DNA from: Escherichia phage LHE83
Direction: 5' to 3' (one strand)
DNA: 64,000 nucleotides
Sequence record: OQ561750
Within the stretch, counting starts at the first letter, position 1. Every line of letters begins with the position of its first letter. A program made the translations under genes and the position numbers. This document shows positions 15,944-53,403 of this stretch, one piece after another. Below the pieces are notes generated by a model, which had not been told where the DNA came from, searched no databases, and saw only the letters and a list, made by a program, of their open reading frames with translations.

Positions 15944-16545
15944 TAGAGGGCTTTCTCCATTTCTCTAATTAAAGCGGAAACAAAGGACTCGATGTCATTA
16001 GGGTCTATAATCTTTATTTCGCGCTTATATTCATTTTTACGAATGGCGTCCTCGTAAATATCTACTGCAGCCAAAGGACCTTCATATTGAGGATAACGTT
16101 TTTCTGTATCACCTTTATCGTACCAAGTATAAGGATTTTCCGGAGTATTTACTAGATTCCAGAATTTCTCACCCTTTTCATTGACATGATAAAGGACTTG
16201 GTTTCCGCCTGCAGTAGCATAACGTTGAATAGCTGCTTGATACGCAGATTCTTGGCCTGTAATCCAGCCGTAATAAGGGTCATAGATATTGTTACACATT
16301 AAAAGGACCCAATATAATTGCACGTTACCATAAAGTTGATGGGCTAATTCTTCTGGACGAGGGGCCCCACTGATATAATATGTTTTAAGTGTATAATTTT
16401 TAGCCACTTTATCAAAATATTCTTTATAGTTTCTAAATATATCAGTCATCGGTACGCTCAGTACATCGGCATCAGTTAATGAGCCGGAATCTGGCTTGAC
16501 TGTTTTTGATTCGTAATTTATAGGATCGAAAAATGAGAAGAGCAT
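15943..16545 (-). CDS. 53: Baseplate wedge protein gp53
   Basis: 200 aa (T4 gp53 196 aa); immediately upstream of gp5 with ATGA overlap; late promoter upstream. Confidence 0.65.
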   Translation of the reverse strand: MLFSFFDPINYESKTVKPDSGSLTDADVLSVPMTDIFRNYKEYFDKVAKNYTLKTYYISGAPRPEELAHQLYGNVQLYWVLLMCNNIYDPYYGWITGQESAYQAAIQRYATAGGNQVLYHVNEKGEKFWNLVNTPENPYTWYDKGDTEKRYPQYEGPLAAVDIYEDAIRKNEYKREIKIIDPNDIESFVSALIREMEKAL

Positions 16546-16557
16546 AGTGCCTCCGAG

Positions 16558-16565
16558 TATAAATA
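16558..16565 (+). promoter_or_regulatory. T4-type late promoter (TATAAATA) for gp4
   Basis: Exact TATAAATA 25 nt upstream of gp4 ATG, followed by AGGAGG SD. Confidence 0.6.
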
Positions 16566-16572
16566 ATATTAA

Positions 16573-16580
16573 TATTTATA
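16573..16580 (-). promoter_or_regulatory. T4-type late promoter (TATAAATA on minus strand) for gp53-wac operon
   Basis: Reverse complement reads TATAAATA about 28 nt upstream of gp53 start; divergent with the gp4 promoter. Confidence 0.6.
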
Positions 16581-16590
16581 AGGAGGCACT

Positions 16591-17040
16591 ATGGCCTACT
16601 CAGGGAAATTTAAACCTACAAACTTACAAAAATATAAAGGTGATTGGAAGAAAATCCAATATCGTTCCTCTTGGGAAGCATGGCTTATGCGTTGGCTTGA
16701 CAACCATCCTAATGTCGTCCAGTGGAACTCGGAAGAGGTTGTGATTCCATATTTTAGTAACGCTGATGGAAAGAAACGTCGGTATTTTATGGACTTCTGG
16801 GTGAAGTTCGACAATGGTCAACAATTCTTTTTCGAAGTCAAACCTTTTAAAGAGACCCATCCTCCAGCGGCGCCTGCTAAAATGACTACAGCTGCTAAAA
16901 AGAGATATATCAACGAACATTATACATGGAGTGTAAATAAAGATAAATGGAAAGCTGCTAAAGCTACAGCAGATAAAATGGGAATTAATTTCAGATTGAT
17001 TACCGAAAACTCACTGAAAAAATTAGGATGGAAAGGATGA
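16591..17040 (+). CDS. 4: Head completion protein gp4
   Basis: 149 aa (T4 gp4 150 aa); divergent from gp53 as in T4; strong SD. Confidence 0.65.
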
Positions 17041-20002: not shown

Positions 20003-20031
20003 GTTTACAAGGTCTATAGGCATGATACTAT
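20003..20031 (+). promoter_or_regulatory. Early promoter (GTTTAC-N17-TACTAT) with conserved TATAGACCTATCAA box
   Basis: -35 GTTTAC and -10-like TACTAT at 17-nt spacing, 37 nt upstream of ATG 20069. Confidence 0.55.
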
Positions 20032-20068
20032 AGACCTATCAAAACAAACTAACCAAACGGAAATCAAA

Positions 20069-20569: not shown

Positions 20570-20599
20570 GTTTACAACGGGCTTTAGTGATGGTACTAT
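20570..20599 (+). promoter_or_regulatory. Early promoter (GTTTAC-N18-TACTAT)
   Basis: Motifs upstream of ATG 20636 with conserved CTATCAAAACAA box and GGAGAATAAA SD. Confidence 0.5.
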
Positions 20600-20635
20600 A
20601 GCCCTATCAAAACAAATGAGTGATTGGAGAATAAA

Positions 20636-21965: not shown

Positions 21966-22039
21966 GGCCCTGTAGCTCAATGGTTAGCAGCAGTCCCCTC
22001 ATAAGGGAAAGGTTACCGGTTCAAATCCGGTCTGGGCCA
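21966..22039 (+). tRNA. tRNA with anticodon CAU (Met, or Ile2-type reading AUA as in the T4 tRNA-Ile)
   Basis: 74-nt cloverleaf: 7-bp acceptor stem (one U-U mismatch), anticodon loop CUCAUAA, T-arm ACCGG-TTCAAAT-CCGGT; position matches T4 tRNA cluster. Confidence 0.65.
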
Positions 22040-22080
22040 TATTTTAAGAACATAAATACTCTTAGAAATAGGAGATATTT

Positions 22081-22746
22081 ATGTTCCATTACACTTATAA
22101 AATAACAAACAAAATTAATAATAAAATCTATATAGGCGCCCATTCAACCGAAAATTTGAATGATGCATATTTTGGTTCTGGTAAACTCTTAAAAAGGGCC
22201 CAGGCCAAATACGGTATAGAAAATTTCTCTAAAGAAATATTAGAGTTCTTTGACGATAAAACCTCTATGTTTGAGTCAGAAAAGAATATTGTGACTAAAG
22301 AGTTTTTAAAGCGCCCCGATGTTTATAATTTGAAATTAGGTGGTGAAGGTGGTTGGGACCATTTAAACACTGAAGAATATTTAGATAAAAAGAAAGAAGC
22401 TTCCTTAAAAGGAGTTGCCGCTTTTAAAACCAGATTTGAGAACGACCCAGACCTTAAAGAAAAATATCGTAAAATGGGTTCAGAAAAGTTTAAACAACTT
22501 TGGGATAATCCTAAGTATAGAGAGAAATTTTCAAATACTAAATCTTTCTTGGGTAAGACCCATTCAGATGAAACCAAAAATAAAATGAAAGAATCTCACG
22601 CCAGAAATAAACATCAACAAGGTGAAAATAATTCCGGATACGGAAAAATGTGGATTCATTCTTTAGAAGAAAAAGTTTCTAAACGTATTAACAAAACGGA
22701 TATTATTCCTGAAGGTTGGAATAAAGGTCGTAAAATAAAATTTTGA
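22081..22746 (+). CDS. segB: GIY-YIG homing endonuclease, SegB-like, inserted in tRNA cluster
   Basis: 221 aa; N-terminal HYTYKITN...NKIYIGAHS...YFGSGK GIY-YIG pattern; basic NUMOD-like C-terminal repeats; same location as T4 segB. Confidence 0.6.
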   Translation: MFHYTYKITNKINNKIYIGAHSTENLNDAYFGSGKLLKRAQAKYGIENFSKEILEFFDDKTSMFESEKNIVTKEFLKRPDVYNLKLGGEGGWDHLNTEEYLDKKKEASLKGVAAFKTRFENDPDLKEKYRKMGSEKFKQLWDNPKYREKFSNTKSFLGKTHSDETKNKMKESHARNKHQQGENNSGYGKMWIHSLEEKVSKRINKTDIIPEGWNKGRKIKF

Positions 22747-22751
22747 ATTAC

Positions 22752-22826
22752 GTCCCGCTGGTGTAATGGATAGCATACGATCCTTCTAAGTTTGCGGTCC
22801 TGGTTCGATCCCAGGGCGGGATACCA
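22752..22826 (+). tRNA. tRNA-Arg (anticodon UCU), CCA encoded
   Basis: 75 nt; 7-bp acceptor stem, anticodon loop CUUCUAA, T-arm CCTGG-TTCGATC-CCAGG, 3-prime ACCA. Confidence 0.7.
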
Positions 22827-25926: not shown

Positions 25927-26272
25927 GCCTAGTAAAACCGACCCTGGTTACGCATTAGCAGATTATGATATAGCTATTTCCTTATTCCTCGGCATTGCTA
26001 CTAGTATGACTGCAGGGATAATTGGATTTCTTGTCGGTGGGATTATTAATGGTATGCCTCGCCATCCGTTTGAAGATATGAGCCTTGCATGGATTTGGGT
26101 TCCGGCTTTAATAGGATTTTTTATCCCATGGGTCTTTGATATTGCCCAAACTAATAAAATAAACAAGCCACGTAAAAAGAGATATGCTTTAGCTATGGCT
26201 AATTATAATGAGTATGTAAAACAAACTAAACGTAATGACCTTGAAACCTTTATTAAGGAATGTAAATCATGA
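25919..26272 (+). CDS. Membrane protein (117 aa) with C-terminal FIKECKS motif
   Basis: Two hydrophobic helices; internal ATG overlapping upstream stop. Confidence 0.45.
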   Translation: MHKPSKTDPGYALADYDIAISLFLGIATSMTAGIIGFLVGGIINGMPRHPFEDMSLAWIWVPALIGFFIPWVFDIAQTNKINKPRKKRYALAMANYNEYVKQTKRNDLETFIKECKS

Positions 26273-26559
26273 ATAAAATTGAAATCGAAATCCCGGAACA
26301 CAATGACGAGAAATCTGCAGAAAAGGCTATCTATGCTCTTCTGAATAAAGCGAATACCATCGAACATGAATGTGAAGCTATTGCCGATAAGTATGGTATC
26401 CAATTCGGTACCGGTGATTATGGTTCAGGACGTACATATTATCCTATCGGCTATGAATGCTCCCAGTGGTTTAAAGATGAAATTGAAAACAACGGCGGTG
26501 AAGTTGAAAACGGCGTCGTTACAGTTGGTGCTTGGGTCTCCTCTTCAGCAATGTGCTAA
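26269..26559 (+). CDS. Small protein, tandem paralog 1 (96 aa), C-terminus AWVSSSAMC
   Basis: ATGA overlap with upstream gene; shares IADKY and G-x-G-D-Y motifs with paralog 2. Confidence 0.5.
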   Translation: MNKIEIEIPEHNDEKSAEKAIYALLNKANTIEHECEAIADKYGIQFGTGDYGSGRTYYPIGYECSQWFKDEIENNGGEVENGVVTVGAWVSSSAMC

Positions 26560-26568
26560 GGAAACGCT

Positions 26569-26850
26569 ATGATGAATGATTGCCGTAAAAATAAAGAGCT
26601 GGCTGACGCAGTAAATGATATCCACAAAGCTATTCGTCGTGCTGAGGAAATTGCTGACAAATATGAGACTCATTTTAATATATACCCTGCTCGCGGTATG
26701 GGCGGTGACTATTATTCTCCTGGCGCCTTGAAAGCCGACCTTGCCCACTGGGAAGAATACGGTGAAGCCCAGTACGCTATTGTAAACCAGCATGATTACA
26801 CCACCAGCCTAGAAAATGGCGGTTGGGTGTCCTCTTCTTCTGAATGTTAA
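26569..26850 (+). CDS. Small protein, tandem paralog 2 (93 aa), C-terminus GWVSSSSEC
   Basis: TAAGGAAA SD; motif EEIADKYETHF...GMGGDYYSPG parallels paralog 1. Confidence 0.5.
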   Translation: MMNDCRKNKELADAVNDIHKAIRRAEEIADKYETHFNIYPARGMGGDYYSPGALKADLAHWEEYGEAQYAIVNQHDYTTSLENGGWVSSSSEC

Positions 26851-26859
26851 GGAAATAAA

Positions 26860-27072
26860 ATGACTATTGATGAAATTGAAAAACAAATCCGCGAATTAGT
26901 ACGTAAAGGCCAGGCCGTGGCTGACGAAACGGGTGAAGAGTTCCGTGTTTCTGGTCGTGGAGAATACATTTCTCCAAAGAACCCGGAATATGATGATTAC
27001 GAATGGGTCCGTGATGACTACGGTATTCCGGAAGGTGAAGGTTTCTGGTTTACATCCTCTATGTCTTGCTAA
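26860..27072 (+). CDS. Small protein, tandem paralog 3 (70 aa), C-terminus FWFTSSMSC
   Basis: TAAGGAAA SD; GRGEYISP motif. Confidence 0.5.
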   Translation: MTIDEIEKQIRELVRKGQAVADETGEEFRVSGRGEYISPKNPEYDDYEWVRDDYGIPEGEGFWFTSSMSC

Positions 27073-27083
27073 GGTGATAAAAA

Positions 27084-27308
27084 ATGTCTGATATTAATGA
27101 ATTAGAAAAAGCTGCACTTGAACTGGCTGCACTGTATAAGAAAGTAAAAGATATGGCTTCTGCTCAAAGTTTTGGTGTTGAGCTCGACGATTATGACGGT
27201 GAAGTTCGTCTCGAAGATTGGCTGAATAGCTCGTGTTATGGCGAAGAAGCTGGACGCACCTTCGTTGCTCAGGCCGATGGTAAAATCTGGTATCCGAGCT
27301 CATGCTAA
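27084..27308 (+). CDS. Small protein, tandem paralog 4 (74 aa), C-terminus IWYPSSC
   Basis: TAAGGTGA SD; divergent body, same C-terminal W-x-SS-C tail. Confidence 0.45.
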   Translation: MSDINELEKAALELAALYKKVKDMASAQSFGVELDDYDGEVRLEDWLNSSCYGEEAGRTFVAQADGKIWYPSSC

Positions 27309-27529
27309 AATTAAAGAAAAGATACATTCGTAAAATAAATGGTCTTCTCGATTATGCCAAAGGTTGGCCGTTAAGTATTATTATGGCTGATAGACACCCG
27401 CGTTATAATACTGAGATGACTTATTACAAAAAGTACGATTCATATTGTCGGTCTAAAGCAGGTCGTTTAGATGGTTCTTATGAAGACTATTTCGGTAAAA
27501 AACCTACTCGTATTTCGTTAGGAAAATAA
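27302..27529 (+). CDS. Hypothetical basic protein (75 aa)
   Basis: ORF overlapping previous stop. Confidence 0.4.
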   Translation: MLKLKKRYIRKINGLLDYAKGWPLSIIMADRHPRYNTEMTYYKKYDSYCRSKAGRLDGSYEDYFGKKPTRISLGK

Positions 27530-27559
27530 TTTAACCACATGGATGTGGTAGGAGGACTT

Positions 27560-27889
27560 ATGCATAAAGATTCAGTATTCAAATATCTTTTGAAAACAAA
27601 TAAAGAATTCTATATGAATGGACAGGCCTTCTTGTTCGTTCGTGGTAAACGTGAGATGTTTTACAAATGCGACCTCTCAATGCACCATCATATGTATCAC
27701 ACCCATGGTGAGCCTATACTGGGATTCTCTGGTGACGAGACTAGACACATAGCTATGTACTACGACCATTTTAAGCTCAATGATTGCGGTGACAACGCTC
27801 TGGTCTGGAATCCATCTTGGCGTCGTTGGGATACAGTAGACAACGATAAATTATTTTTAGAATATTGCAGAAGTGATGTACAACTCTAA
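27560..27889 (+). CDS. Hypothetical protein (109 aa) with His-rich segment HHHMYHTHGE
   Basis: Internal ATG after AGGAGG SD. Confidence 0.45.
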   Translation: MHKDSVFKYLLKTNKEFYMNGQAFLFVRGKREMFYKCDLSMHHHMYHTHGEPILGFSGDETRHIAMYYDHFKLNDCGDNALVWNPSWRRWDTVDNDKLFLEYCRSDVQL

Positions 27890-27932
27890 AAATACGTGTT
27901 ACTATTACCTTACACAAACATGAGGAGTACAT

Positions 27933-28172
27933 ATGTGGTATTACGCCCCGATGTCCGATAAGTCTAATGAACCGGTACGCATTACTCGTGCCAAGTTTAA
28001 AAAGATTTATGGCTTCTCTTATAAGAAGTCTGATTACGGTGTTCGTTTTGAAGATGCCCACTGTATCAATGACCCTTATGCTGAAGAAATCTCTAATGAG
28101 ATAATTCCTATCATTAAGAATAATTCTGATGATATGTGGGAATTGCATAACGATTACGTTGCTGAAATTTAA
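27933..28172 (+). CDS. Hypothetical protein (79 aa)
   Basis: ORF with GAGGAG SD. Confidence 0.45.
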   Translation: MWYYAPMSDKSNEPVRITRAKFKKIYGFSYKKSDYGVRFEDAHCINDPYAEEISNEIIPIIKNNSDDMWELHNDYVAEI

Positions 28173-28193
28173 GTTTACTCTGAGGAAAATATT

Positions 28194-29153
28194 ATGATGT
28201 TAGTTATTGGTTCTCGTGCACTGCACCACGCTGGTCTGATTGAAAGTAAGCATATCGAAAATTCTGATTGGGATTTCATTGCCGACCAAGGCTCATGGAA
28301 TCACTTTAAAGCTCGGATGTTTGGTGCCCATGTTCCTGTGGATAACCCTGATGTCCAGGCTTTTAAATGCATGTACAATGGTAAAGAAACCTATTTTGAA
28401 GCTTATATCGTTCGTGCCCTGACTAACGTACGAGAAATTACCGGTGAGCTTCAAGACGAAGATTTCACCTCAAGTTATCGTCTCCTGAAATATGCCGAAA
28501 ATCATATTAAAAAGGACCGTCTTACAGGTTTCTATTGGGCCACGCCTGATATCTGTCTGGCTATCAAAACCTCTCATCGTTTCCTGAAGAATAATCCGTT
28601 CTTCTTGAAAACTATGTCCCACATCAAATACCTTCGTAATAAAGGTATCACCCTGAACGAAGAACTCCAGGAAATTATGCTGCAACGTCAAAAAGAAACG
28701 TTGAGCTATTCCCACCCTAAATTGGATGTAAACAAATCATCGTTCTTTAATGATACCATTTATACCCTAGACCACGACTCTATCCATGAAGCAGTGGCAT
28801 TGGCAGGGCGCCCTGCATATACCTTTTATATGAAGGAAGGTTCTGAAGTCATGACCTCTCGTGAGAAGTTCGAGGCTTTGCCTGAAGCTATTAAACTGGC
28901 TGGTGTGTATGAAGAAACTTGTGTCCTGGCACTAGAACGTTCACAGGTTCCTAATGACTTCAATATTTCACCATCATTAAGTTTCTATATGGCCCTTGAG
29001 AAAGTGTGCACCTCAATCACTTCAGGTTGGTTCCGCACTTATGCATGGGAAAACTACCAAGCTGTGGTTAATATGTACAAGACTTTAGGTGAAAACGACT
29101 ACATTGAACGGTTTAAGCGTAACCAACATTTAATTCGTCCTTTCGAAAAATAA
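28194..29153 (+). CDS. Hypothetical protein (319 aa)
   Basis: Long ORF with GAGGAAAA SD; no recognised motif. Confidence 0.5.
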   Translation: MMLVIGSRALHHAGLIESKHIENSDWDFIADQGSWNHFKARMFGAHVPVDNPDVQAFKCMYNGKETYFEAYIVRALTNVREITGELQDEDFTSSYRLLKYAENHIKKDRLTGFYWATPDICLAIKTSHRFLKNNPFFLKTMSHIKYLRNKGITLNEELQEIMLQRQKETLSYSHPKLDVNKSSFFNDTIYTLDHDSIHEAVALAGRPAYTFYMKEGSEVMTSREKFEALPEAIKLAGVYEETCVLALERSQVPNDFNISPSLSFYMALEKVCTSITSGWFRTYAWENYQAVVNMYKTLGENDYIERFKRNQHLIRPFEK

Positions 29154-29165
29154 TTGCACAAAACA

Positions 29166-29194
29166 GTGTACAAGGTCTATAGGTGTGATACTAT
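29166..29194 (+). promoter_or_regulatory. Early promoter (GTGTAC-N17-TACTAT) with TATAGACCTATCAA box
   Basis: Variant -35; same cassette as at 20003 and 23887. Confidence 0.5.
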
Positions 29195-29231
29195 AGACCT
29201 ATCAAAACAACAGAGTGAAATGGAGAATAAA

Positions 29232-29444
29232 ATGAAACTTTCTAACCAAGCAATCAACATGTTAAACGAAGTTCGTGCAGCTGGTGCTAAATGCCTGATG
29301 GTTAACACTCGTGACGGTGACCTTCGTCAAGCATTTGGTGAATTGAAATCTGCTGACCTGGTTAAATGTTCAGTTGGTATTGGTAACGCACTTCGTGTAT
29401 CCTTATCCCCTAAAGGTAAAATGTACTTTTTCAACAAAAAGTAA
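29232..29444 (+). CDS. Hypothetical protein (70 aa)
   Basis: ATG after GGAGAATAAA SD. Confidence 0.45.
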   Translation: MKLSNQAINMLNEVRAAGAKCLMVNTRDGDLRQAFGELKSADLVKCSVGIGNALRVSLSPKGKMYFFNKK

Positions 29445-29458
29445 GTGAGGAAAATATT

Positions 29459-30148
29459 ATGAACGGTCCAAAAATTTTTAATTCTAAAGCTCGTGCAGTA
29501 GGTGGTTTTGCTCAAGATATCAGTAATGATATGATTAAAAATGAGCCTATGTTCTTTAATTGCGATGCTTATTTTGCTCATAAACATGGCGGTCCTATTA
29601 CTCGTAGCTTTATTGAAAACCTGCCTGAAGATTGGCAATGTGGCCCTGATATTGTATTTGATTCCCGTGTACACATGTTAATGCCTGGCTGGTACCCTGC
29701 AATCCCAGGCTTCCACCATGATGATGTACCACGTCCGGATATTCCGGTTGGCCAACACTTTATTACCGCAGGGCAACCTGATTATGATAATCCTCGATAC
29801 CATTCTGAACATATTCTTGGTCTTGTTAACGCTGATGTGTGTCCTACTCATTTTGCAACCGGAACTGCACAGTTCAGTCAGATTCCTGAAGGCGAACTTA
29901 TCTATCGCCAGTGGCATAAAGAAGTTCTGGAAAAAATTGAGTCCAATGAATTAACCAAGTGGGATGCTCCTGACCGCACGTTGCTCCAGTTTGATTGGCA
30001 GACATGGCATACAGGTTCTCGTGCAGTAAGTAATGGGTGGCGCTGGTTTGGTCGGGTGTCTCGTAATACAGACCGTGTTAAAAAGATTACAAATGAAATC
30101 CGCGTTAATGCTCAAGTATATCTGGAATTCCCTATGGAGGGCTGGTAA
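29459..30148 (+). CDS. Hypothetical protein (229 aa) with possible metal-binding HHDD ... H arrangement
   Basis: PGFHHDDVPRPD and TWHTGSRA segments seen; fold assignment unverified. Confidence 0.45.
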   Translation: MNGPKIFNSKARAVGGFAQDISNDMIKNEPMFFNCDAYFAHKHGGPITRSFIENLPEDWQCGPDIVFDSRVHMLMPGWYPAIPGFHHDDVPRPDIPVGQHFITAGQPDYDNPRYHSEHILGLVNADVCPTHFATGTAQFSQIPEGELIYRQWHKEVLEKIESNELTKWDAPDRTLLQFDWQTWHTGSRAVSNGWRWFGRVSRNTDRVKKITNEIRVNAQVYLEFPMEGW

Positions 30149-30735
30149 TGGCCCTTTATGAACCTGGTTGTATGGGTATTGATACAAACTTCATCCGTCG
30201 GTCGGAAAATGCTGGAATTATTATCCCAAGTGGTGAGAATACGATTATTAAAAAGTCCTGGCGAAATATCGATGACTGCGATGAAGGAATTTCAGCCAGT
30301 ACAATAGATTGGTCAGGTTGTACTGCCGAAATGAAACAGCTTTTAATTGAGGAATATAAAATGGGCTATATTGTAAACGGCTGGCAAGCGGAACCACATA
30401 AAGAACAGACTCCAGACCCATTGATTTGTTATAGCAAAAAATACGGCTTCCGTGCCTGGAGTGATGAATACGACAAATTGGTGAGTTCTAGATTCTATGT
30501 TTGGATGGGTATATTATTTTTCCCACTCCTAGGGTTTTTCCTGACAACAGATAATGACCTGCCTATTTGTGTATTCGCTTCAGCGATGTCTGCTGCTATC
30601 TTAGGTCTTATCGCATCATTTTTATGGACCTCTGTTATCGAAGTACCTTTTCGTATTTCTAAAGTTAAAAAGGTATATGACGATATCACTAAGAAAAATA
30701 CATTAAACTCTTTTATTAAGGAATGCCGTAAATGA
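30148..30735 (+). CDS. Membrane protein (195 aa) with C-terminal FIKECRK motif
   Basis: Two C-terminal TM helices; C-terminal tail paralogous to 25919 gene. Confidence 0.5.
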   Translation: MALYEPGCMGIDTNFIRRSENAGIIIPSGENTIIKKSWRNIDDCDEGISASTIDWSGCTAEMKQLLIEEYKMGYIVNGWQAEPHKEQTPDPLICYSKKYGFRAWSDEYDKLVSSRFYVWMGILFFPLLGFFLTTDNDLPICVFASAMSAAILGLIASFLWTSVIEVPFRISKVKKVYDDITKKNTLNSFIKECRK

Positions 30736-30968
30736 GCATTGCAATTTATATTAAATCTGAGTCATGTGATTCTTATCTGTATTCCTATGATACCGGAACA
30801 TCAGAAGAGAAAATTAAAGAAGACTTAGAAAGCGATATGGATATGTTCTGTCCTATTGGTGACTATATGCTTCAAGTGTCTGATAGTGAAAGTCCATCAT
30901 CAGAAAATAGACTTCAAATTATTATGCAAGATATTTTTAAACAATCATGGGAACGAGACGATGAGTAA
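30732..30968 (+). CDS. Hypothetical acidic protein (78 aa)
   Basis: ATGA overlap with upstream gene. Confidence 0.4.
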   Translation: MSIAIYIKSESCDSYLYSYDTGTSEEKIKEDLESDMDMFCPIGDYMLQVSDSESPSSENRLQIIMQDIFKQSWERDDE

Positions 30969-31410
30969 GAAAGCTAAGGAATTATCGGCAGGTATTTTGT
31001 TCATGACCGTTGATAAAGAACTAGTTATGGGTCGTGTAACAGGCTCTCGTAATCCAGAGAACATGCGTCATAAATGGGACATTCCTAAAGGTCATGTCGA
31101 ACCAGGCGAAGAGCCTATTCAAGCGGCAATGCGCGAAACCGAAGAAGAGATTGGATTCACAGCATACGATCCTGCATTCCTGAAAGACCTAGGTGAGTTC
31201 AAATATTCAAGCAATAAGAATCTACATCTGTTCTTATATACAGTGCCTGTGGAACACGAGCAGTTCAAGGATTGCAAATGTACGGCTTACCATACGTTCC
31301 CTGATGGTCGTACTATTCCTGAATTCGATGCGTTCGCCTTGATTAAACGTCCGCAATGGGAATATGTCATGGGTAAGTCGATGTTTAAGGTTTTAGATTC
31401 GCTCTTTTGA
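30961..31410 (+). CDS. nudE: Nudix hydrolase (T4 e.1 / NudE-like)
   Basis: Nudix box GHVEPGEEPIQAAMRETEEEIG; adjacent to e as in T4. Confidence 0.7.
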   Translation: MSKKAKELSAGILFMTVDKELVMGRVTGSRNPENMRHKWDIPKGHVEPGEEPIQAAMRETEEEIGFTAYDPAFLKDLGEFKYSSNKNLHLFLYTVPVEHEQFKDCKCTAYHTFPDGRTIPEFDAFALIKRPQWEYVMGKSMFKVLDSLF

Positions 31411-31418
31411 TATAAATA
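31411..31418 (+). promoter_or_regulatory. T4-type late promoter TATAAATA for e, abutting SD-sequestering hairpin CCTCC/GGAGG
   Basis: Exact TATAAATA 22 nt upstream of e ATG; 5-prime arm CCTCC (31419-31423) pairs with SD GGAGG (31432-31436). Confidence 0.6.
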
Positions 31419-31440
31419 CCTCCTATACTCAGGAGGTATT

Positions 31441-31929
31441 ATGGATATTTTTGATATGTTACGTCAAGACGAAGGTCTTGATTTAAATCTTTATAAAGAC
31501 ACTGAAGGTTATTGGACTATTGGTATTGGCCAGTTAGTTACCAAGAACCCATCTAAAGACGTTGCTCGCGCTGAACTTGATAAGCTTATGGGTCGAGTTT
31601 GCAACGGTCGTATTACTATGGCTGAAGCTGAGCAACTCTTTAACCGATCGGTTGAAAATGCTCGTAGAGCTATTCTGCGTAATCCTAAATTGAAACCTGT
31701 TTATGATGTATTAGACGAAGTTCGTCGTTGTGCTTTAATTAACATGGTCTTCCAAATGGGTGAAGCAGGTGTAGCAGGGTTCACTAACTCTTTACGTATG
31801 CTCCAACAGAAACGTTGGGACGATGCGGCAGTTAACCTGGCTCAATCCCGTTGGTATAAACAAACTCCAAATCGTGCTAAGCGCGTGATTTCAACATTTA
31901 AAACCGGCACATGGGCTGCTTATAGATAA
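31441..31929 (+). CDS. e: Endolysin (T4 lysozyme, gene e)
   Basis: 162 aa; [30 protein letters not shown] with catalytic Glu11/Asp20/Thr26 equivalents; high similarity to T4 lysozyme along full length. Confidence 0.9.
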
Positions 31930-31934
31930 AAGCA

Positions 31935-31963
31935 GTTTACATCTCCTAGAATTGTGATAGTAT
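31935..31963 (+). promoter_or_regulatory. Early promoter (GTTTAC-N17-TAGTAT)
   Basis: Motifs upstream of ATG 32017. Confidence 0.5.
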
Positions 31964-32016
31964 ATCTACAGTTACTTGAACAGACCAATTAAAATATTTA
32001 CCTTTAAGGAATCCGT

Positions 32017-32613
32017 ATGAAAACGTATAAAGAATTTATCGCCGAAGCTTCTGTAGGAAAGGTCCAAGGCATTAATAAAGATGAGTGGACTTACAAAGGA
32101 AACGGCGTTGACAACCCAGGAAACGGTTTTGACGCTAAAACAGCTCCTATTGAACGGTATTTAGCTACAAAGGCTTCTGATTTTAAAGCTTTCGCCTGGG
32201 AAGGACTTCGCTGGCGTAACGACCTAAATATTGAAGCTGATGGACTTAAATTTGCCCATATCCAAGATGTTGTTGCTAGTAACTTGGACGCAGCTTTTGT
32301 TAAAGCTGACGGTGACCTTCGTCGCTGGAATTTAAAACTGTTCTCTAAACAGAAAGGTCCTGTATTTGTACCTAAAGCAGGTAAATGGACTATTGATAAT
32401 AAATTGGCTAAGGCGGTCAACTTCGCCGGTCTTGAATTTGCCAAGCACAAATCAGCATGGAAAGGTCTCGATGCAATGACTTTCCGTAAAGAATTTGCCG
32501 ATGTTATGGCTAAAGGCGGCTTTAAGGCAGAAATAGATACCTCTAAAGGTACGTTTAAAGACGCTAATATTCAGTACGCTTACGCCGTTGCTAATGCTGC
32601 CCGTGGTAATTAA
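32017..32613 (+). CDS. ipIII: Internal protein III-like (CTS MKTYKEFIAEA)
   Basis: 198 aa (T4 IPIII 194 aa); CTS N-terminus; position e-ipIII-ipII-denV as in T4. Confidence 0.6.
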   Translation: MKTYKEFIAEASVGKVQGINKDEWTYKGNGVDNPGNGFDAKTAPIERYLATKASDFKAFAWEGLRWRNDLNIEADGLKFAHIQDVVASNLDAAFVKADGDLRRWNLKLFSKQKGPVFVPKAGKWTIDNKLAKAVNFAGLEFAKHKSAWKGLDAMTFRKEFADVMAKGGFKAEIDTSKGTFKDANIQYAYAVANAARGN

Positions 32614-32654
32614 TAAAGCGAATACTCGGACCTATTTACATTTAAAGGAAACAT

Positions 32655-32957
32655 ATGAAAACCTATCAAGAATTTATCACCGAAGCGCGAGTAAGTGCGG
32701 GTAAATTAGAAGCCGCCGTAAATAAAAAGGCCCATTCATTTCATGATTTGCCCGATAAAGACCGTAAGAAACTTGTAAGCCTTTATATTGACAAAGAGCG
32801 TATTCTCGCTCTCCCAGGCGCTAATGAAGGTAAACAGGCCAAGCCTTTGAATTCTGTCGAAAAGAAAATTGATAACTTTGCTTCTAAGTTCGGTATGTCT
32901 ATGGATGACCTTCAGCAAGCGGCTACCGAAGCAGCTAAAGCAATTAAAGGTAAATAA
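32655..32957 (+). CDS. ipII: Internal protein II-like (CTS MKTYQEFITEA)
   Basis: 100 aa (T4 IPII 100 aa); CTS N-terminus; synteny. Confidence 0.6.
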   Translation: MKTYQEFITEARVSAGKLEAAVNKKAHSFHDLPDKDRKKLVSLYIDKERILALPGANEGKQAKPLNSVEKKIDNFASKFGMSMDDLQQAATEAAKAIKGK

Positions 32958-33017
32958 CGGTTTATTTTTACGATAGTTGTGATATAGTGTTCTCATACAA
33001 ACATGGAGAACACTAAA

Positions 33018-33425
33018 ATGACTCGTATCAACCTTACCTTAGTATCTGAATTGGCTGACCAACACTTAATGGCTGAATATCGTGAATTACCACGTGTTTT
33101 CGGTGCAGTTCGTGAACGTATTGCCAAAGGGCAAGGCTTCTCTGATATCCCTAAAGACTTCCGCCTTGGTTCAGGGCACGTCAAGTTCTTTTATGACAAA
33201 ATTGGTTTTTTGTTCTTGCGACAAAATGCAATAATTGAGGAACTTCTGAAGCGTGGTTACCAGATTCAAAATACCCATGTAGACGTAGCGGATATTCCAT
33301 TACGGCTTATGAACGATTTCACTCCAACCGAAGCTGATATAGCTTTAAGCCAAGCTCGTCTGGACGAAAAAATTGCACAGCGTCCTACCTGGTACAAACA
33401 TTATGGCAAGGCTATTTACGCTTAA
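33018..33425 (+). CDS. denV: Endonuclease V (pyrimidine dimer DNA glycosylase)
   Basis: Starts [31 protein letters not shown] and ends [15 protein letters not shown], closely matching T4 DenV; 135 aa from internal ATG. Confidence 0.85.
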
Positions 33426-33468
33426 TTAAATCCGTGATAGAATACTTCTATCAACTTAAGGAATAACA

Positions 33469-33768
33469 ATGAAAACTTATCAAGAATTTATCACAGAAGC
33501 CAAAGCTCCTAAAGCATTTCAAATTGGAGTTCAAGGCAATTTAGACCAAGAATATGTTGATGCTATTGTAGCAAGCCTCGGTAAACAGGGCGTACAAGTC
33601 GATTTTGTTGATTTTACCAAAGGTAATACTTTTAATATTGTTACATCTAAAGGTTCTTTAGCTAAAGTTAAAAAGGCCTTTGGCGTAGCACAAGCATATG
33701 AAATCGACCACTCCGAATTAGAAAATAAAGGTCGCCAGAACACAATTAGAGGTTCTGGTTCTTTCTAA
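33469..33768 (+). CDS. Additional internal-protein-like gene (CTS MKTYQEFITEA)
   Basis: 99 aa; identical CTS-type N-terminus, unrelated body; downstream of denV. Confidence 0.55.
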   Translation: MKTYQEFITEAKAPKAFQIGVQGNLDQEYVDAIVASLGKQGVQVDFVDFTKGNTFNIVTSKGSLAKVKKAFGVAQAYEIDHSELENKGRQNTIRGSGSF

Positions 33769-33864
33769 TAAAGGCAAGCCGGCCCTCTCCTCATGAACGT
33801 CGCGTCCTCTGAGTGATGGACCTTTCCCTACCTGTAATAAGGTCGAGCCCAAGTGCGGTAAAGG

Positions 33865-33893
33865 GTTTACATACGGATACATGGATGAATTAT
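33865..33893 (+). promoter_or_regulatory. Early promoter candidate (GTTTAC-N17-AATTAT) inside GC-rich spacer
   Basis: -35 GTTTAC seen; -10 weak. Confidence 0.35.
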
Positions 33894-33929
33894 GTGCCAA
33901 GGAACGGCCCCACCAACTAAGAGACAATT

Positions 33930-34457
33930 ATGAAATTTTTAACTCCCATTTATCTAACCTTAATGCACGCCTTCGCTGAACGCGCCATTGAACGTTTAGA
34001 CTCAGACCAATACACCTGGTATGAACCCGCTTCAAGAATGCAAGAGTTTGGTACTCTGAGACTTGACGGTGGGCGACAAACAGGTAAAACAAGTGCCATT
34101 GCGCAGTTTGCTGCGGATTGGGTTTCCAAGGGTAATGATGTGATTGTTATGTCGAGTTCTTCGCATCGCTCGCGAGAAATTTGTAATGTAATAAAACAGG
34201 TTTCTAAGGCACACCCACATCTCCAAGTCGAAGGTCCTGGTTTTGTTGTCTATGATACTGTGCGCAGTTTCCTTGATGAAGACAATTTCCATAAGTATCG
34301 TGGACTATCTGTTACTCGATTATTGATTATTATCGAAGAGCCAATGCGCCTTCCAGCGATGGATAAGTTCTATGAAGCTTACCAGGTAATGATTAATAAA
34401 TTTATGTGCCAAGGCGACAAGCCTTTGCCTCTGTTCTTTGTGATAGGAATGCAATGA
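33930..34457 (+). CDS. Small P-loop NTPase-like protein (175 aa)
   Basis: Walker A-like GGRQTGKTS and Walker B-like LLIIIEEP. Confidence 0.45.
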   Translation: MKFLTPIYLTLMHAFAERAIERLDSDQYTWYEPASRMQEFGTLRLDGGRQTGKTSAIAQFAADWVSKGNDVIVMSSSSHRSREICNVIKQVSKAHPHLQVEGPGFVVYDTVRSFLDEDNFHKYRGLSVTRLLIIIEEPMRLPAMDKFYEAYQVMINKFMCQGDKPLPLFFVIGMQ

Positions 34458-34750
34458 TGACTGATGAAGAACTTTTTGAGTTCTGTTATTTCTCACGTAA
34501 GGTTCGAAGAGAGGACCTTACTGCAAATTTCGAGTATGCTTATTTCTATCCATTAGAATATGTATTCATGACAGGGCCCTTTAAGGGCTCTCGTTTTAGA
34601 TGTCATGCCCCAAGCATCCGATTAATGAAACAGGTTCCTTACTTCACCCTCGAGTTCATCTCAGGGCCTTGTAAGGGTATTATAACTCGTAGTCTCTTGA
34701 CATATGACCAAGAGATTCATATGATTTCTGACTGGAAAAAATATGTCTAA
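34454..34750 (+). CDS. Hypothetical protein (98 aa)
   Basis: ATGATGA start/stop overlap with upstream gene. Confidence 0.4.
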   Translation: MMTDEELFEFCYFSRKVRREDLTANFEYAYFYPLEYVFMTGPFKGSRFRCHAPSIRLMKQVPYFTLEFISGPCKGIITRSLLTYDQEIHMISDWKKYV

Positions 34751-34961: not shown

Positions 34962-35236
34962 TTGAAGATATCAAGGGTTACAAACCACATACCGACGATA
35001 AAATCGGTAAAGTGAATGCTATTAAAGATGCCGAAATTCGGTTAGGGCTGATGTTTAAAGCTCTAGAAGAAGAACATGTTACCTATTATATGAACTTAGA
35101 TACCGAAGAGGTTTCTGAACAAGAACTAGACCAGGCTCATGAACGCATTACCCAGATTCGTAATGCAATTGACCGTCTTAAAGAAGCTAGTATGTGGGCT
35201 TGTCGCTCTGTGTTCCAACCAGAAGAAAAGTACTAA
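34958..35236 (+). CDS. Small helical acidic protein (92 aa)
   Basis: ATGA overlap; predicted helical by composition. Confidence 0.4.
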   Translation: MIEDIKGYKPHTDDKIGKVNAIKDAEIRLGLMFKALEEEHVTYYMNLDTEEVSEQELDQAHERITQIRNAIDRLKEASMWACRSVFQPEEKY

Positions 35237-35240
35237 AGCA

Positions 35241-35269
35241 GTTTACATCTCCTGTAGGTATGATACTAT
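35241..35269 (+). promoter_or_regulatory. Early promoter (GTTTAC-N17-TACTAT) inside 10-bp inverted repeat TCTCCTGTAG/CTACAGGAGA
   Basis: Hexamers plus conserved ACCTATCAA box; 3-prime arm carries SD of regB. Confidence 0.55.
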
Positions 35270-35297
35270 AAACCTATCAACTACAGGAGATTACAAA

Positions 35298-35756
35298 ATG
35301 TCAGAAATTAATTCAGAAGTATTCATCCGCCGCAATAAATTACGTCGTCAGTTCGAAACCGAATTCCGCGAACTGAATGCGTCCATCAAAAAAGCCGCCA
35401 TTAAGAGCGGAGTCCCAGCCTTCTTTATTAAGTACTCTAATCACTTGTTGGACCGTGCTATCCAACGTGAAATCGACGAAAAATACGTTTTTGCTTTATT
35501 CAAGCAACTCCATAACCATGTTAAAGAAATTCATGAATTTTTAATCCAGGAACCTCTGCCTGATGTAGAAGCCGAAATCATTCCTGGTAAAGTGTATCGC
35601 CCATTGCGTCTCGAAATTACCGATAAAACCTTATGGCTAGGTATGACTGTAGATCGTAAACATCCTGATAAAGGATACTCGTTAAAATGTCGTATGGCAT
35701 TTGTTAACTCTAAACGTTTAGAAGGTAAAACCAGCACGAAAGTAATCTATCTTTAA
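35298..35756 (+). CDS. regB: Sequence-specific endoribonuclease RegB
   Basis: 152 aa; EVFIRRNKLRR...HLLDRAIQREIDE...RLEITD...CRMA segments align with T4 RegB. Confidence 0.8.
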   Translation: MSEINSEVFIRRNKLRRQFETEFRELNASIKKAAIKSGVPAFFIKYSNHLLDRAIQREIDEKYVFALFKQLHNHVKEIHEFLIQEPLPDVEAEIIPGKVYRPLRLEITDKTLWLGMTVDRKHPDKGYSLKCRMAFVNSKRLEGKTSTKVIYL

Positions 35757-43086: not shown

Positions 43087-43428
43087 ATGTTCGAACAATT
43101 TATTTACAATCTTTATAACGCAGGTCAGACTTTTTCCAAAGCCATGAAACAGTCTGTTGAAGACTATATTAATGAATGTAGTACTAAGTTTTCTGAGAAA
43201 TTCTATAAAAATCCGTGTAGTGGAGGAGACTTCAGGAGACTGCGCTTGGCCGTTAACACCCGGGCCTTAATAAATCTAGACCGCAAGCAGGTAAAGTTGG
43301 CAGGCGACTTCCGAGATGAACTCTGCGCCATCAGGAATGAATATCGCATTCGTATTGAACACCAACGGAAAGAGAACACTCAATCCGCATGGTTTAGTGG
43401 TCAAGCCGGTGAAAAAAGTTTCTATTAG
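43087..43428 (+). CDS. Hypothetical protein (113 aa)
   Basis: ORF with AGGTGA SD. Confidence 0.45.
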   Translation: MFEQFIYNLYNAGQTFSKAMKQSVEDYINECSTKFSEKFYKNPCSGGDFRRLRLAVNTRALINLDRKQVKLAGDFRDELCAIRNEYRIRIEHQRKENTQSAWFSGQAGEKSFY

Positions 43429-43430
43429 TT

Positions 43431-43459
43431 GTTTACATCTCCAGTAGAAATGATACTAT
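43431..43459 (+). promoter_or_regulatory. Early promoter (GTTTAC-N17-TACTAT) inside inverted repeat CTCCAGTAG/CTACTGGAG
   Basis: Same cassette architecture as 35241. Confidence 0.55.
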
Positions 43460-43485
43460 AGACCTATCAACTACTGGAGGTTATC

Positions 43486-44010
43486 ATGAACGCTAAAGAT
43501 ATTTTTTCACTGATTAATTTCAACAACGGTAATTTCAAATCTGAAAAACAAAGCAAGTTCTTTAATGATGTTGCTTGTGGTAATGAGATTACCGTATCTG
43601 GAGGAGAGATTTACAAAAGCCGTTGGAACTGGATTGTTATCATCGATTCAGTTGGTATTGTAGAGCTCTATAAAAACACTAACAAAAAACGTACTCTTCA
43701 CTGGAGTCGTGAAACCAATCAAGCTTATCAAGCTGAACGTAACAAACGTTTAATGCCTACCGAATCCGACCTGGCAAACGTTAAATCTGATATCGCTTAT
43801 TTCGATAATCTGATTGCAGAGGAACAAGCGGTTATTGATAAGTTTGACGAAATCAAAGCTTGTAAAGAGATTCCTGAATTTATGCGGGAATCAGTAAATG
43901 AACAGTACGCCCTCACTTCAGGTCGTATCGAGCAGTACAAATCGCAACGAGCTGAACGCCAAGCTCTGCTTCAGAAATTTGAAGAGCGTTTAAAGACGGT
44001 TCTCGCATAA
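43486..44010 (+). CDS. Hypothetical protein (174 aa)
   Basis: ORF downstream of promoter. Confidence 0.45.
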   Translation: MNAKDIFSLINFNNGNFKSEKQSKFFNDVACGNEITVSGGEIYKSRWNWIVIIDSVGIVELYKNTNKKRTLHWSRETNQAYQAERNKRLMPTESDLANVKSDIAYFDNLIAEEQAVIDKFDEIKACKEIPEFMRESVNEQYALTSGRIEQYKSQRAERQALLQKFEERLKTVLA

Positions 44011-48440: not shown

Positions 48441-48650
48441 TTGATATGGAATATGGGTTTTACTATGAAAACTGAACTGATTTATACTGAAAAGTTAAAT
48501 GGCGGTAAAGTCTGGAAACTTCTTATTAAAGGAAGTCCTACTGATCAGTTTATGGCCACTTGTGTAGGGTTATACACCCGTCCTACTAAAAAGATGATTC
48601 GTCAATTTAAACGGTTGCATCGCTCGTTTTATAGTACATTTGAAAAATAA
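48441..48650 (+). CDS. Hypothetical basic protein (69 aa)
   Basis: ORF only; start uncertain. Confidence 0.3.
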   Translation: MIWNMGFTMKTELIYTEKLNGGKVWKLLIKGSPTDQFMATCVGLYTRPTKKMIRQFKRLHRSFYSTFEK

Positions 48651-48685
48651 TAAATACCCTTATCTAATAATGGTAAGGGTTTATT

Positions 48686-49159
48686 ATGTTGTTGACCGGC
48701 AAATTATACAAAGAAGAAAAACAAAAACTTTATGATGCACAATGTGGTAAGTGTTTGATTTGTAAACGTGAATTAAACCCTGATGTTCAAAGTAACCACC
48801 TTGACCACGACCATGAATTGAACGGGCCAAAAGCCGGTAAGGTTCGTGGTTTACTATGTAATCTGTGCAATGCTGCAGAAGGACAAATGAAGCATAAGTT
48901 CAACCGTTCTGGTCTTAAAGGTCAAAACGTTGACTACCTCGAATGGTTAGAGAATTTGCTGGTCTATCTGAAAGCTGATTATACTGAAAACAATATCCAT
49001 CCTAATTTCGTTCCTGATAAAACCAAAGAGTTCAGCAGGTTAGGTAAGGAAGAAATGATTGCTGAAATGCTTTCACATGGAATGACTTATAATGAATCTG
49101 ACACTAAGAAACAAATGGTCGATTCATTTAAAAAACAACTGAGGAAATCGCTTAAATGA
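48686..49159 (+). CDS. 49: Recombination endonuclease VII (Holliday junction resolvase)
   Basis: 157 aa (same as T4 gp49); CGKCLIC zinc motif and HLDHDHELNG catalytic H-N-H-like segment. Confidence 0.85.
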   Translation: MLLTGKLYKEEKQKLYDAQCGKCLICKRELNPDVQSNHLDHDHELNGPKAGKVRGLLCNLCNAAEGQMKHKFNRSGLKGQNVDYLEWLENLLVYLKADYTENNIHPNFVPDKTKEFSRLGKEEMIAEMLSHGMTYNESDTKKQMVDSFKKQLRKSLK

Positions 49160-52178: not shown

Positions 52179-52874
52179 ATGCACTATTGTTATATGACCA
52201 CTATAAAATCCGAAAATGATACTTATTACTATTTCGGTAAACACACCGGATTTATAGATGACGGGTATGTCGGTAGTGGCAAATTCGTAGAAGATGCTAA
52301 GGCCTCAGGGAAATGCTCTTTTAATATAGAGGCCTTATGTTATTTTGAGACAAGTGAGCTTGCTTTTGAATTTGAAGAGCTTTTGGTAGAAAATGCCATG
52401 TCCGAAATAACTAACTGCGTCAATATGAAACCTGGTGGTATAGGTGGTTATGCTCCTCCGACACCGGAAAGACTTGAAGAACAGTCTAAAGAAGTTACCG
52501 AACGCTGGCAGGACCCTGAATATAAAGAGCGGGTTTCCAACTCTATTAAAAAGTCTTGGGAAAATGAAGAGCATCGAGAAATGATGCGTCGAATCCATAA
52601 AGAGTATAATGCTAATCCTGAAGTTAGAGAGGCCAAAAGTAAAAAGAACAAAGAATATTACTCTATAGAGAATTATTCCAAGTTTGCTAAAAATCCAACA
52701 TATGTATTATATGATGAGTTCCATGAACTTTGGATTAAGGAAGGACGCCCTAGTTATTCTAAATTCTGGCGCAAATGCTGTGAACTATGTTATCCATATA
52801 CGATAAATAATTTTAGACCACTAGTTGATAGGTTTAAGAGGGCTTATGAATCAGGTGAAGTTAACAAAAAATAA
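52179..52874 (+). CDS. GIY-YIG-type homing endonuclease-like protein (Seg-like), paralog of the 22081 gene
   Basis: HYCYMTT...YYYFGKH...YVGSGK...NMKPGGIGG parallels HYTYKITN...IYIGAHS...YFGSGK...NLKLGGEGG of the segB-like gene; basic C-terminus; 3-prime end overlaps gp55 start. Confidence 0.5.
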
Positions 52875-53403
52875 TTATGTAAATAACAAGGAGCTTCTTA
52901 AAGCTATTACAAGTTGGAAGCAGGAATTATATGCTAACACCGACCCTAATAAAATCATTAGACAAAATGATACTATAGGATTGGCTATTATGCTTATAGC
53001 AGAAGGCCTCAGCAAGCGTTTCAACTTCTCAGGATATACCCAATCTTGGCGGCAGGAAATGATAGCTGATGGAATCGAAGCTTCGATTAAAGGTCTTCAC
53101 AATTTCGACGAAACAAAATACGACAACCCACATGCATATATCACTATGGCTTGTTTTAATGCCTTCGTTCAGCGTATCAAAAAAGAACGTAAAGAAATGG
53201 CAAAGAAATATAGCTACTTCGTCCATAATGTCTATGACAGTAATGATGACGACATGGTAGGTATTGCAGATGAAACCTTTATCCAAGATATCTACGACAA
53301 AATGACTCAGTATGAAACCTCTTTAACTAAAGCACCAGGGTCTGATAAGAGTGCCGAACCTAAAGTTGGTGAACTGGATTTTTTATATGGAACATCAGAT
53401 TAA
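52846..53403 (+). CDS. 55: Late-transcription sigma factor gp55
   Basis: 185 aa from internal ATG; [12 protein letters not shown]...[30 protein letters not shown]...[10 protein letters not shown] closely matches T4 gp55. Confidence 0.85.

Follow-up and report, generated by a model that had tools for sequence, protein, structure and literature searches.

A predicted late promoter embedded in a Shine-Dalgarno hairpin upstream of lysozyme gene e in Escherichia phage LHE83: a very probable orthologue of the T4 gene e translational switch

We analysed a stretch of 64,000 nt from Escherichia phage LHE83 (sequence record OQ561750), referred to throughout as the window. The window is 92-98% identical at the DNA level to Dhakavirus phages such as LQ5, AnYang and JS98, and is a JS98-like Dhakavirus, i.e. 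a T4-type phage. The gene order nudE-e-ipIII-ipII-denV is as in T4, and LQ5/AnYang/JS98-type Dhakavirus records have nudE, e, ipIII and denV annotated in the same order. Two genes flank the spacer that is our subject:

30961 to 31410, + strand: nudE, encoding a Nudix hydrolase; early gene upstream of e in the same orientation, whose TGA stop (31408-10) directly adjoins the late promoter motif
31441 to 31929, + strand: gene e, T4-type lysozyme/endolysin of 162 aa, with its ATG at 31441

The nudE ORF matches the Pfam family NUDIX (E = 8e-15), and the same place is annotated nudE in JS98 and AnYang. The e ORF matches Pfam Phage_lysozyme (E = 1e-12) and a PHROG endolysin family, with ~76% identity to T4 e. 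Direct reading of its product finds E11, D20 and T26, which we take to be the catalytic residues of T4 lysozyme. In roughly half of the Dhakavirus relatives, ~386 bp are inserted directly after e (e.g. AnYang, L001 2423-2821); the inserted DNA encodes a hypothetical protein of 132 aa, overlapping the e stop codon. The window (site ~31915-31935) and JS98 lack this insertion.

Read directly, positions 31401-31445 are gctcttttgaTATAAATACCTCCTATACTCAGGAGGTATTATGGA. The 30 nt between the nudE stop codon and the e start codon (31411-31440) hold the following overlapping features:

31411 to 31418, + strand: predicted gp55-type late promoter motif TATAAATA (consensus from PMC1524935)
31415 to 31424, + strand: hairpin 5' arm AATACCTCCT, including the anti-Shine-Dalgarno (anti-SD) CCTCC at 31419-31423
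31424 to 31425, + strand: predicted late transcription start, 6-7 nt past the last A of TATAAATA by the -13 to -6 rule
31424 to 31431, + strand: TATACTCA, a degenerate remnant of the second late promoter TATAAATA of T4
31425 to 31430, + strand: hairpin loop ATACTC
31431 to 31440, + strand: hairpin 3' arm AGGAGGTATT, with the Shine-Dalgarno (SD) GGAGG at 31432-36 and then the spacer TATT at 31437-40

The order of motifs upstream of e given by the original prediction is exact, with every part in its predicted position. CCTCC does pair with GGAGG as proposed, as the core of a longer stem: AATACCTCCT (31415-24) and AGGAGGTATT (31431-40) pair perfectly to give a 10-bp stem with a 6-nt loop. The element was also held to support the promoter and gene calls, and indeed it confirms the e start codon and identifies a late promoter. 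The promoter motif TATAAATA has five matches in the window versus 7.7 expected, i.e. there is no enrichment. The motif count therefore proves nothing, and it is position and conservation in relatives that carry weight.

The fold of 31411-31445 has a free energy of -14.1 kcal/mol (ViennaRNA; z = -3.6), and none of 200 dinucleotide shuffles folded as well. When 90 or 150 nt of sequence is folded, the hairpin is retained in both the MFE and the centroid structure. Across the 64-kb window there are seven perfect hairpins of at least 9 bp with a loop of 3-10 nt, compared with 2.5 +/- 1.5 in shuffles. No Rfam family matches the e leader (31411-31440) at gathering score; over the whole window the only matches are two tRNAs (21966-22039 and 22752-22823).

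Transcription of e at early and late times would depend on two further elements of the window:

29166 to 29194, + strand: predicted T4-type early promoter, with GTGTACA, a 13-nt spacer and the extended -10 TGATACTAT
52846 to 53403, + strand: gene 55, late sigma factor (PHROG 234 'late sigma transcription factor', E = 7e-68)

The early promoter is one of eight + strand copies of the motif GTTTACA-N13/14-TGATACTATA in the window and is the nearest such motif upstream of e, at a distance of 2.25 kb. All ORFs in between are on the + strand, and a terminator scan of 26000-34500 found no + strand terminator-like site between 29200 and 31441. By this arrangement, early transcripts from the promoter at 29166-29194 would read through into e. 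The trans-acting part is gp55, the reader of TATAAATA promoters, which the window itself encodes. A homing-endonuclease-like ORF (52179-52874; PHROG 314) overlaps the start of gene 55, and a GATAAATA motif lies within it at 52802, 36 nt before the gene 55 ATG.

In T4, the late promoter TATAAATA spans -13 to -6 (PMC1524935). Applied to the window, this rule predicts the late +1 at 31424/31425, directly 3' of CCTCC, leaving at most one base of the 5' arm in the transcript. On the downstream side, the e stop codon is directly followed by an early-type promoter (GTTTACA...TGATAGTATA; 31936-31964), which lies ahead of ipIII. Neither ipIII nor the ipII-like gene has an (N)ATAAATA motif in front of it, and late synthesis of these head proteins may depend on transcripts that run on from the e late promoter.

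To compare the two kinds of transcript, we computed the free energy needed to unpair the stretch from SD to AUG (31430-31443), termed the opening energy. For RNAs starting 26-300 nt upstream of the ATG it is 13.7-15.0 kcal/mol, with a computed probability of an unpaired SD of 0.000. For RNAs starting at 31422-31426 it is 3.6-4.5 kcal/mol, and the probability rises to ~0.22; the late RNA is not fully open because the U-rich 5' end of the ORF offers weak alternative pairing. The idea that read-through RNA sequesters the SD is thus borne out by the fold, which costs ~14-15 kcal/mol to open. The comparison of early and late 5' UTRs suggested alongside that idea gave a drop in opening cost from this value to ~4 kcal/mol. 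A late transcript that lacks the 5' arm and is translatable, as was also proposed, fits at the sequence level both with the -13 to -6 rule and with the computed opening energy. By our estimate, the 2-3 basal A-U pairs could be melted by a ribosome that terminates translation of nudE, whose stop codon lies 5 nt ahead of the stem; the stem without them still has a free energy of -10.5 to -11.7 kcal/mol.

Conservation was examined in e leaders from IMG/VR loci and GenBank phages, covering ~26 of ~1,000 Tevenvirinae records with an e orthologue and sampling Tequatro-, Mosig-, Dhaka-, Kanagawa-, Karam-, Gelderland- and Tegunavirus together with a Klebsiella phage. These gave 16 distinct leaders from at least eight Tevenvirinae genera, in all of which ATAAATA, the adjacent anti-SD and the hairpin are kept. 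The ATAAATA core is invariant (16/16), and the sampled leaders read [T/A/G]ATAAATAC, directly followed by a C(C)TCC-type anti-SD, a loop and the SD. In each of the 16 the computed opening energy falls by 6-13 kcal/mol from early to late RNA. Two lysozyme homologues from Stephanstirmvirinae have neither the promoter motif nor occlusion (3.7 and 6.8 kcal/mol). Where a gene other than nudE lies upstream, as in CGG4-1 and Roth80, e still has the cassette.

Arm sequences differ between these leaders. G.U pairs are used in the stems of T4, ZX14, PhAPEC2 and CGG4-1, and in L009 an SD of GGGGG faces CCCC, a compensatory change. In the Karam, Kanagawa and Klebsiella leaders the lower ATA/TAT pairs are missing and the top of the stem is extended instead (TATC/GATA, TATA/TATA). 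In Enterobacter phage ZX14 (L085 401-416) the annotated lysozyme start lies 15 nt downstream of the ATG of the cassette; the true start is probably this upstream ATG, after promoter, hairpin and SD. SD-covering hairpins were also seen in the ~60 nt upstream of position 1501 in further IMG/VR contigs (L025-L039), before lysozyme homologues with 40-54% identity, and some of these contigs carry CCTCATAAATA in the 5' arm. We dropped this group as evidence, as it is uninformative on gp55 promoters and the two members checked, L035 and L037, are not T4-like: they match T4-type phages in the lysozyme gene only, and L035 adjoins siphovirus-like tape-measure sequence.

The stem might instead be an intrinsic terminator, or a stem stabilising the 3' end, of the nudE unit, with e under transcription control alone. 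The record of the Mosigvirus PhAPEC2 labels the homologous hairpin (L084 375-411) 'putative terminator determined with ARNold', the T-rich TATTTTT begins 7 nt past the stem in the window, and PeSL stem-loops of T4-type phages have been shown to attenuate (PMC2839356). However, the window hairpin was not called in the scan of 26000-34500 and has no adjacent U-tract; the stem runs into ATGGATA, whilst the T-run is separate from it and corresponds to conserved N-terminal codons (Ile-Phe). The stem covers the SD in every relative, not merely the spacer, and PMC3014915 describes T4 early transcripts that extend into e and form an inhibitory structure. Nor does a terminator account for the late promoter always being set with its +1 just past the anti-SD. 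We consider a terminator or stabilising stem very unlikely. The 'terminator' of PhAPEC2 is probably a mis-annotated translational switch.

For the covariation analysis, a plain MAFFT alignment (A1) was replaced because its stems fell out of register. In the N-padded replacement (A2), which was hand-anchored on promoter and SD and so leans towards structure, the core CTCC:GGAG is paired in 64/64 cells, with one compensatory double change (U-A to C-G) and four U.G wobbles. Over all cells 81.9% are paired, compared with 36-52% (maximum 51.5%) when the partner is slid by 1-3 columns, and the covariation score exceeds all 500 shuffles, again in this structure-leaning alignment. Four pairs have changes on both sides. 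Since both SD and promoter are under constraints of their own, the real covariation is modest and amounts to a single fully compensatory core change plus three pairs that vary in the upper stem. What remains as truly independent signal is the conserved anti-SD at -5 to -1, the one core compensation and the stem extensions that differ between leaders.

These data bear on whether the complementarity is an accident of a late promoter next to a strong SD, making a hairpin that has no regulatory role. In keeping with an accident, TATAAATA is not enriched in the window, and the SD and ATAAATA are each kept for their own function, which inflates the apparent conservation of structure. Yet the anti-SD C(C)TCC, at about -5 to -1, lies outside the late promoter consensus and is nevertheless found in 16/16 leaders. 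Other ATAAATA sites in the window precede unrelated sequence, except at gene 49 and a seg-like gene, where there are SD hairpins. The match of GGGGG by CCCC in L009, the extension of the stem on different sides in different genera (ATA/TAT below or TATC/GATA above) and the z score of the window hairpin (-3.6) also argue against coincidence, to which we assign hardly any probability.

A further possibility is that the inverted repeat works as DNA, being a palindromic protein site or operator over the late promoter, rather than as an RNA hairpin. The repeat does overlap the promoter, and I-TevI provides a precedent, as it controls its own late promoter through an operator (PMC2988022, as described in section 10). 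The pattern of non-Watson-Crick cells in the core helix points weakly the other way: there are four U.G and no A.C on the sense strand, and U.G is allowed in RNA whilst the other strand would have an A.C mismatch. The same count in the upper helix (four U.G versus six A.C, mostly at loop positions) is uninformative. Arm sequences vary between genera while the SD pairing stays, which fits RNA better than a fixed protein site. We know of no candidate binding protein for the e-leader repeat, and regard an operator as exceedingly improbable, the least probable of these alternatives.

We also ranked ORF starts in the window by occlusion of the ribosome-binding site (RBS). Among 82 SD-preceded starts, that of e comes 7th, with an opening energy of 14.8 kcal/mol against a median of 6.0. 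Ranks 1, 2, 4, 7 and 8 lie behind (N)ATAAATA motifs (gp4-like, gp53-like, gene 49, e and seg-like); at ranks 3 and 9 it is a hairpin-embedded early promoter that lies in front. The leader of gene 49 (endonuclease VII; Pfam Endonuclease_7, Endonuc-dimeris; 48649-48688, ATG at 48686) has AATAAATA and CCCTTA...TAAGGG over the SD, and the computed opening energy is 16.4 kcal/mol in read-through RNA and 4.3 in late RNA. This is a known T4 case, conserved in the window. The seg-like gene encodes a GIY-YIG/NUMOD3 homing endonuclease (22081-22746) and lies between tRNA genes at 21966-22039 and 22752-22823. Its leader (22051-22083) has CATAAATA followed by CTCT...GGAGATATTTATG; the spacer and AUG region are the pairing partner of the promoter motif itself, and as a consequence CATAAATA reads on the minus strand too. 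Its computed opening energies are 14.8 kcal/mol (early) and 2.9 (late), and the arrangement resembles that of T4 segB. Between the gp4-like and gp53-like genes (16545-16595), divergent copies of TATAAATA on the + strand (16558) and of TATAAATA on the - strand (16580) form one large palindrome, in which each SD complements sequence upstream of the promoter of the other gene. Both RBSs would be occluded in read-through RNAs (~25 kcal/mol), and the late + strand transcript has a computed value of 5.8 kcal/mol.

Sigma70-type early promoters (GTTTACA...TGATACTATA) also occur within SD hairpins, at 35261 (35236-35300), before a gene at 35298, and at 43451 (43426-43488), before a gene at 43486. The spacer between -35 and -10, CTCCTGTAG or CTCCAGTAG, is the perfect complement of the SD of the next gene, CTACAGGAG or CTACTGGAG, and between the two copies there is a compensatory A/T swap. 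Computed opening energies are 14.1 and 18.9 kcal/mol for read-through RNA versus 4.2 and 7.4 for RNA from the genes' own promoters. Near-identical perfect 10-bp hairpins, AGGTCTATAGG[CA/TG]TGATACTATAGACCT, are found at 20010-20037 and 29173-29200, overlapping the spacer and extended -10 of early promoters, and a third copy at ~20578-20605 (AGGGCT.../...AGCCCT) has compensatory changes. All three are probably PeSL elements (Arbiol et al. 2010). We found no mention of SD sequestration in the PeSL literature searched, and the SD hairpins at the PeSL-like early promoters 35261 and 43451 are only a mildly new lead. It is possible, though we hold it only tentatively and think it somewhat doubtful, that this Dhakavirus has a genome-wide grammar in which promoters, both late and at least two early ones, are placed inside SD-sequestering hairpins, covering e, gene 49, the seg-like gene, the divergent gp4/gp53 pair and the early promoters 35261 and 43451. 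If so, PeSL-like stem-loops would be translational insulators, and not solely terminators or recombination sites, and the genes behind them would be translated only from transcripts of their own promoters.

Taken together, the 30-nt nudE-e spacer is very probably the orthologue of the translational switch of phage T4 gene e. This reading draws support from the presence of the sequence-level requirements and from orthology to the e leader of T4, where the mechanism has been published. That the arrangement reproduces the T4 delay of lysozyme, as had been predicted, is supported by the homologous leader, synteny, the contrast between the folds, gp55 and conservation. The evidence from the window and its relatives comprises the anatomy, the thermodynamic contrast, conservation with covariation, gp55 and the early promoter motif.

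The switch would operate as follows, with the 5' ends of transcripts, read-through at early times and the strength of the block on translation carried over from T4. Early in infection, host RNA polymerase would start at sigma70-type promoters, of which the nearest is at ~29190, and read nudE into e. In this read-through RNA, AAUACCUCCU would pair with AGGAGGUAUU, burying the SD up to the AUG, so that lysozyme would not be made while the cell must stay intact. After the onset of replication, polymerase containing gp55 would start at TATAAATA, which lies in and just before the 5' arm. Since the late transcript would begin at ~31424-25, the anti-SD CCUCC would never be transcribed, and the resulting 17-nt late leader would leave the SD open for lysozyme to be translated. 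Nothing in this is new biology: publications of 1986 and 2010 already cover the mechanism and its conservation among relatives of T4. What the comparison conveys is that a safeguard of lysozyme timing is kept across at least eight T4-type genera although the arm sequences and the upstream gene change. The e leader is also a reliable landmark for annotation and can correct 'terminator' calls on the homologous hairpin in relatives.

Several known elements share parts of this architecture. A Rho-independent terminator is likewise a GC-containing stem-loop in an intergenic spacer, but the window hairpin differs in ending at the start codon of the next gene. PeSL elements carry a stem-loop that overlies the -35 and -10 boxes of a sigma70-type early promoter or lies between them (Arbiol et al. 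2010, PMC2839356), and have been read as terminator/attenuator-plus-promoter recombination modules (PMC2839356; Comeau et al. 2014, PMC4122927). Like the e leader of the window, they interleave a promoter with a stem-loop and end, on the 3' side, in the SD and ATG of the following gene; unlike it, they involve early promoters and are not interpreted as late-translation switches. The same logic of a late promoter in an RBS hairpin is described, in section 12 of Edgell et al. (2010, PMC2988022), for I-TevI/II/III, segB, soc and Aeh1 mobE, and gene 49 is named as another hairpin-switch case by Uzan and Miller (PMC3014915). In these T4 switches, as at e in the window, a late gene lies in an early/middle unit, its SD is in a hairpin, and the late RNA lacks the 5' arm. 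They concern different genes with stem sequences unrelated to that of e, and I-TevI also binds its own promoter.

The closest counterpart is the leader of T4 gene e itself, TATAAATACCTTCTATAAATACTTAGGAGGTATTATG, to which the window leader is homologous. An RBS-sequestering hairpin with embedded late promoters is reported there (McPheeters et al. 1986, Nucleic Acids Res 14:5813, as cited in PMC3014915). As summarised by Uzan and Miller (2010, PMC3014915), early T4 e transcripts form an inhibitory structure that cuts synthesis 100-fold, and transcripts started at either of the two late promoters, which lack its 5' part, are translated well. According to this review, close T4-type relatives have similar e leaders, each with a late promoter where the 5' strand is encoded; the text of the review does not name JS98. 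The T4 e transcripts were mapped experimentally, whereas the window is known from its sequence alone. The original prediction of likeness to T4 is supported for the mechanism but missed that T4 has a second late promoter, a TATAAATA in the loop. The window has only one late promoter: its loop copy has decayed to TATACTCA, and that of JS98 to TATAATCA. In T4 the anti-SD reads CCTTC and forms one G.U pair, and the loop has 8 nt (MFE), as against the perfect 10-bp stem and 6-nt loop of the window. In both phages ATAAATAC and GGAGGTATTATG are present, and TATAAATA is directly followed by a pyrimidine anti-SD, a loop and GGAGGTATT-ATG, with the predicted start just 3' of the anti-SD. The computed opening energies of early and late RNA are 15.0 and 4.0 kcal/mol in T4 versus 14.7 and 4.2 kcal/mol in the window.
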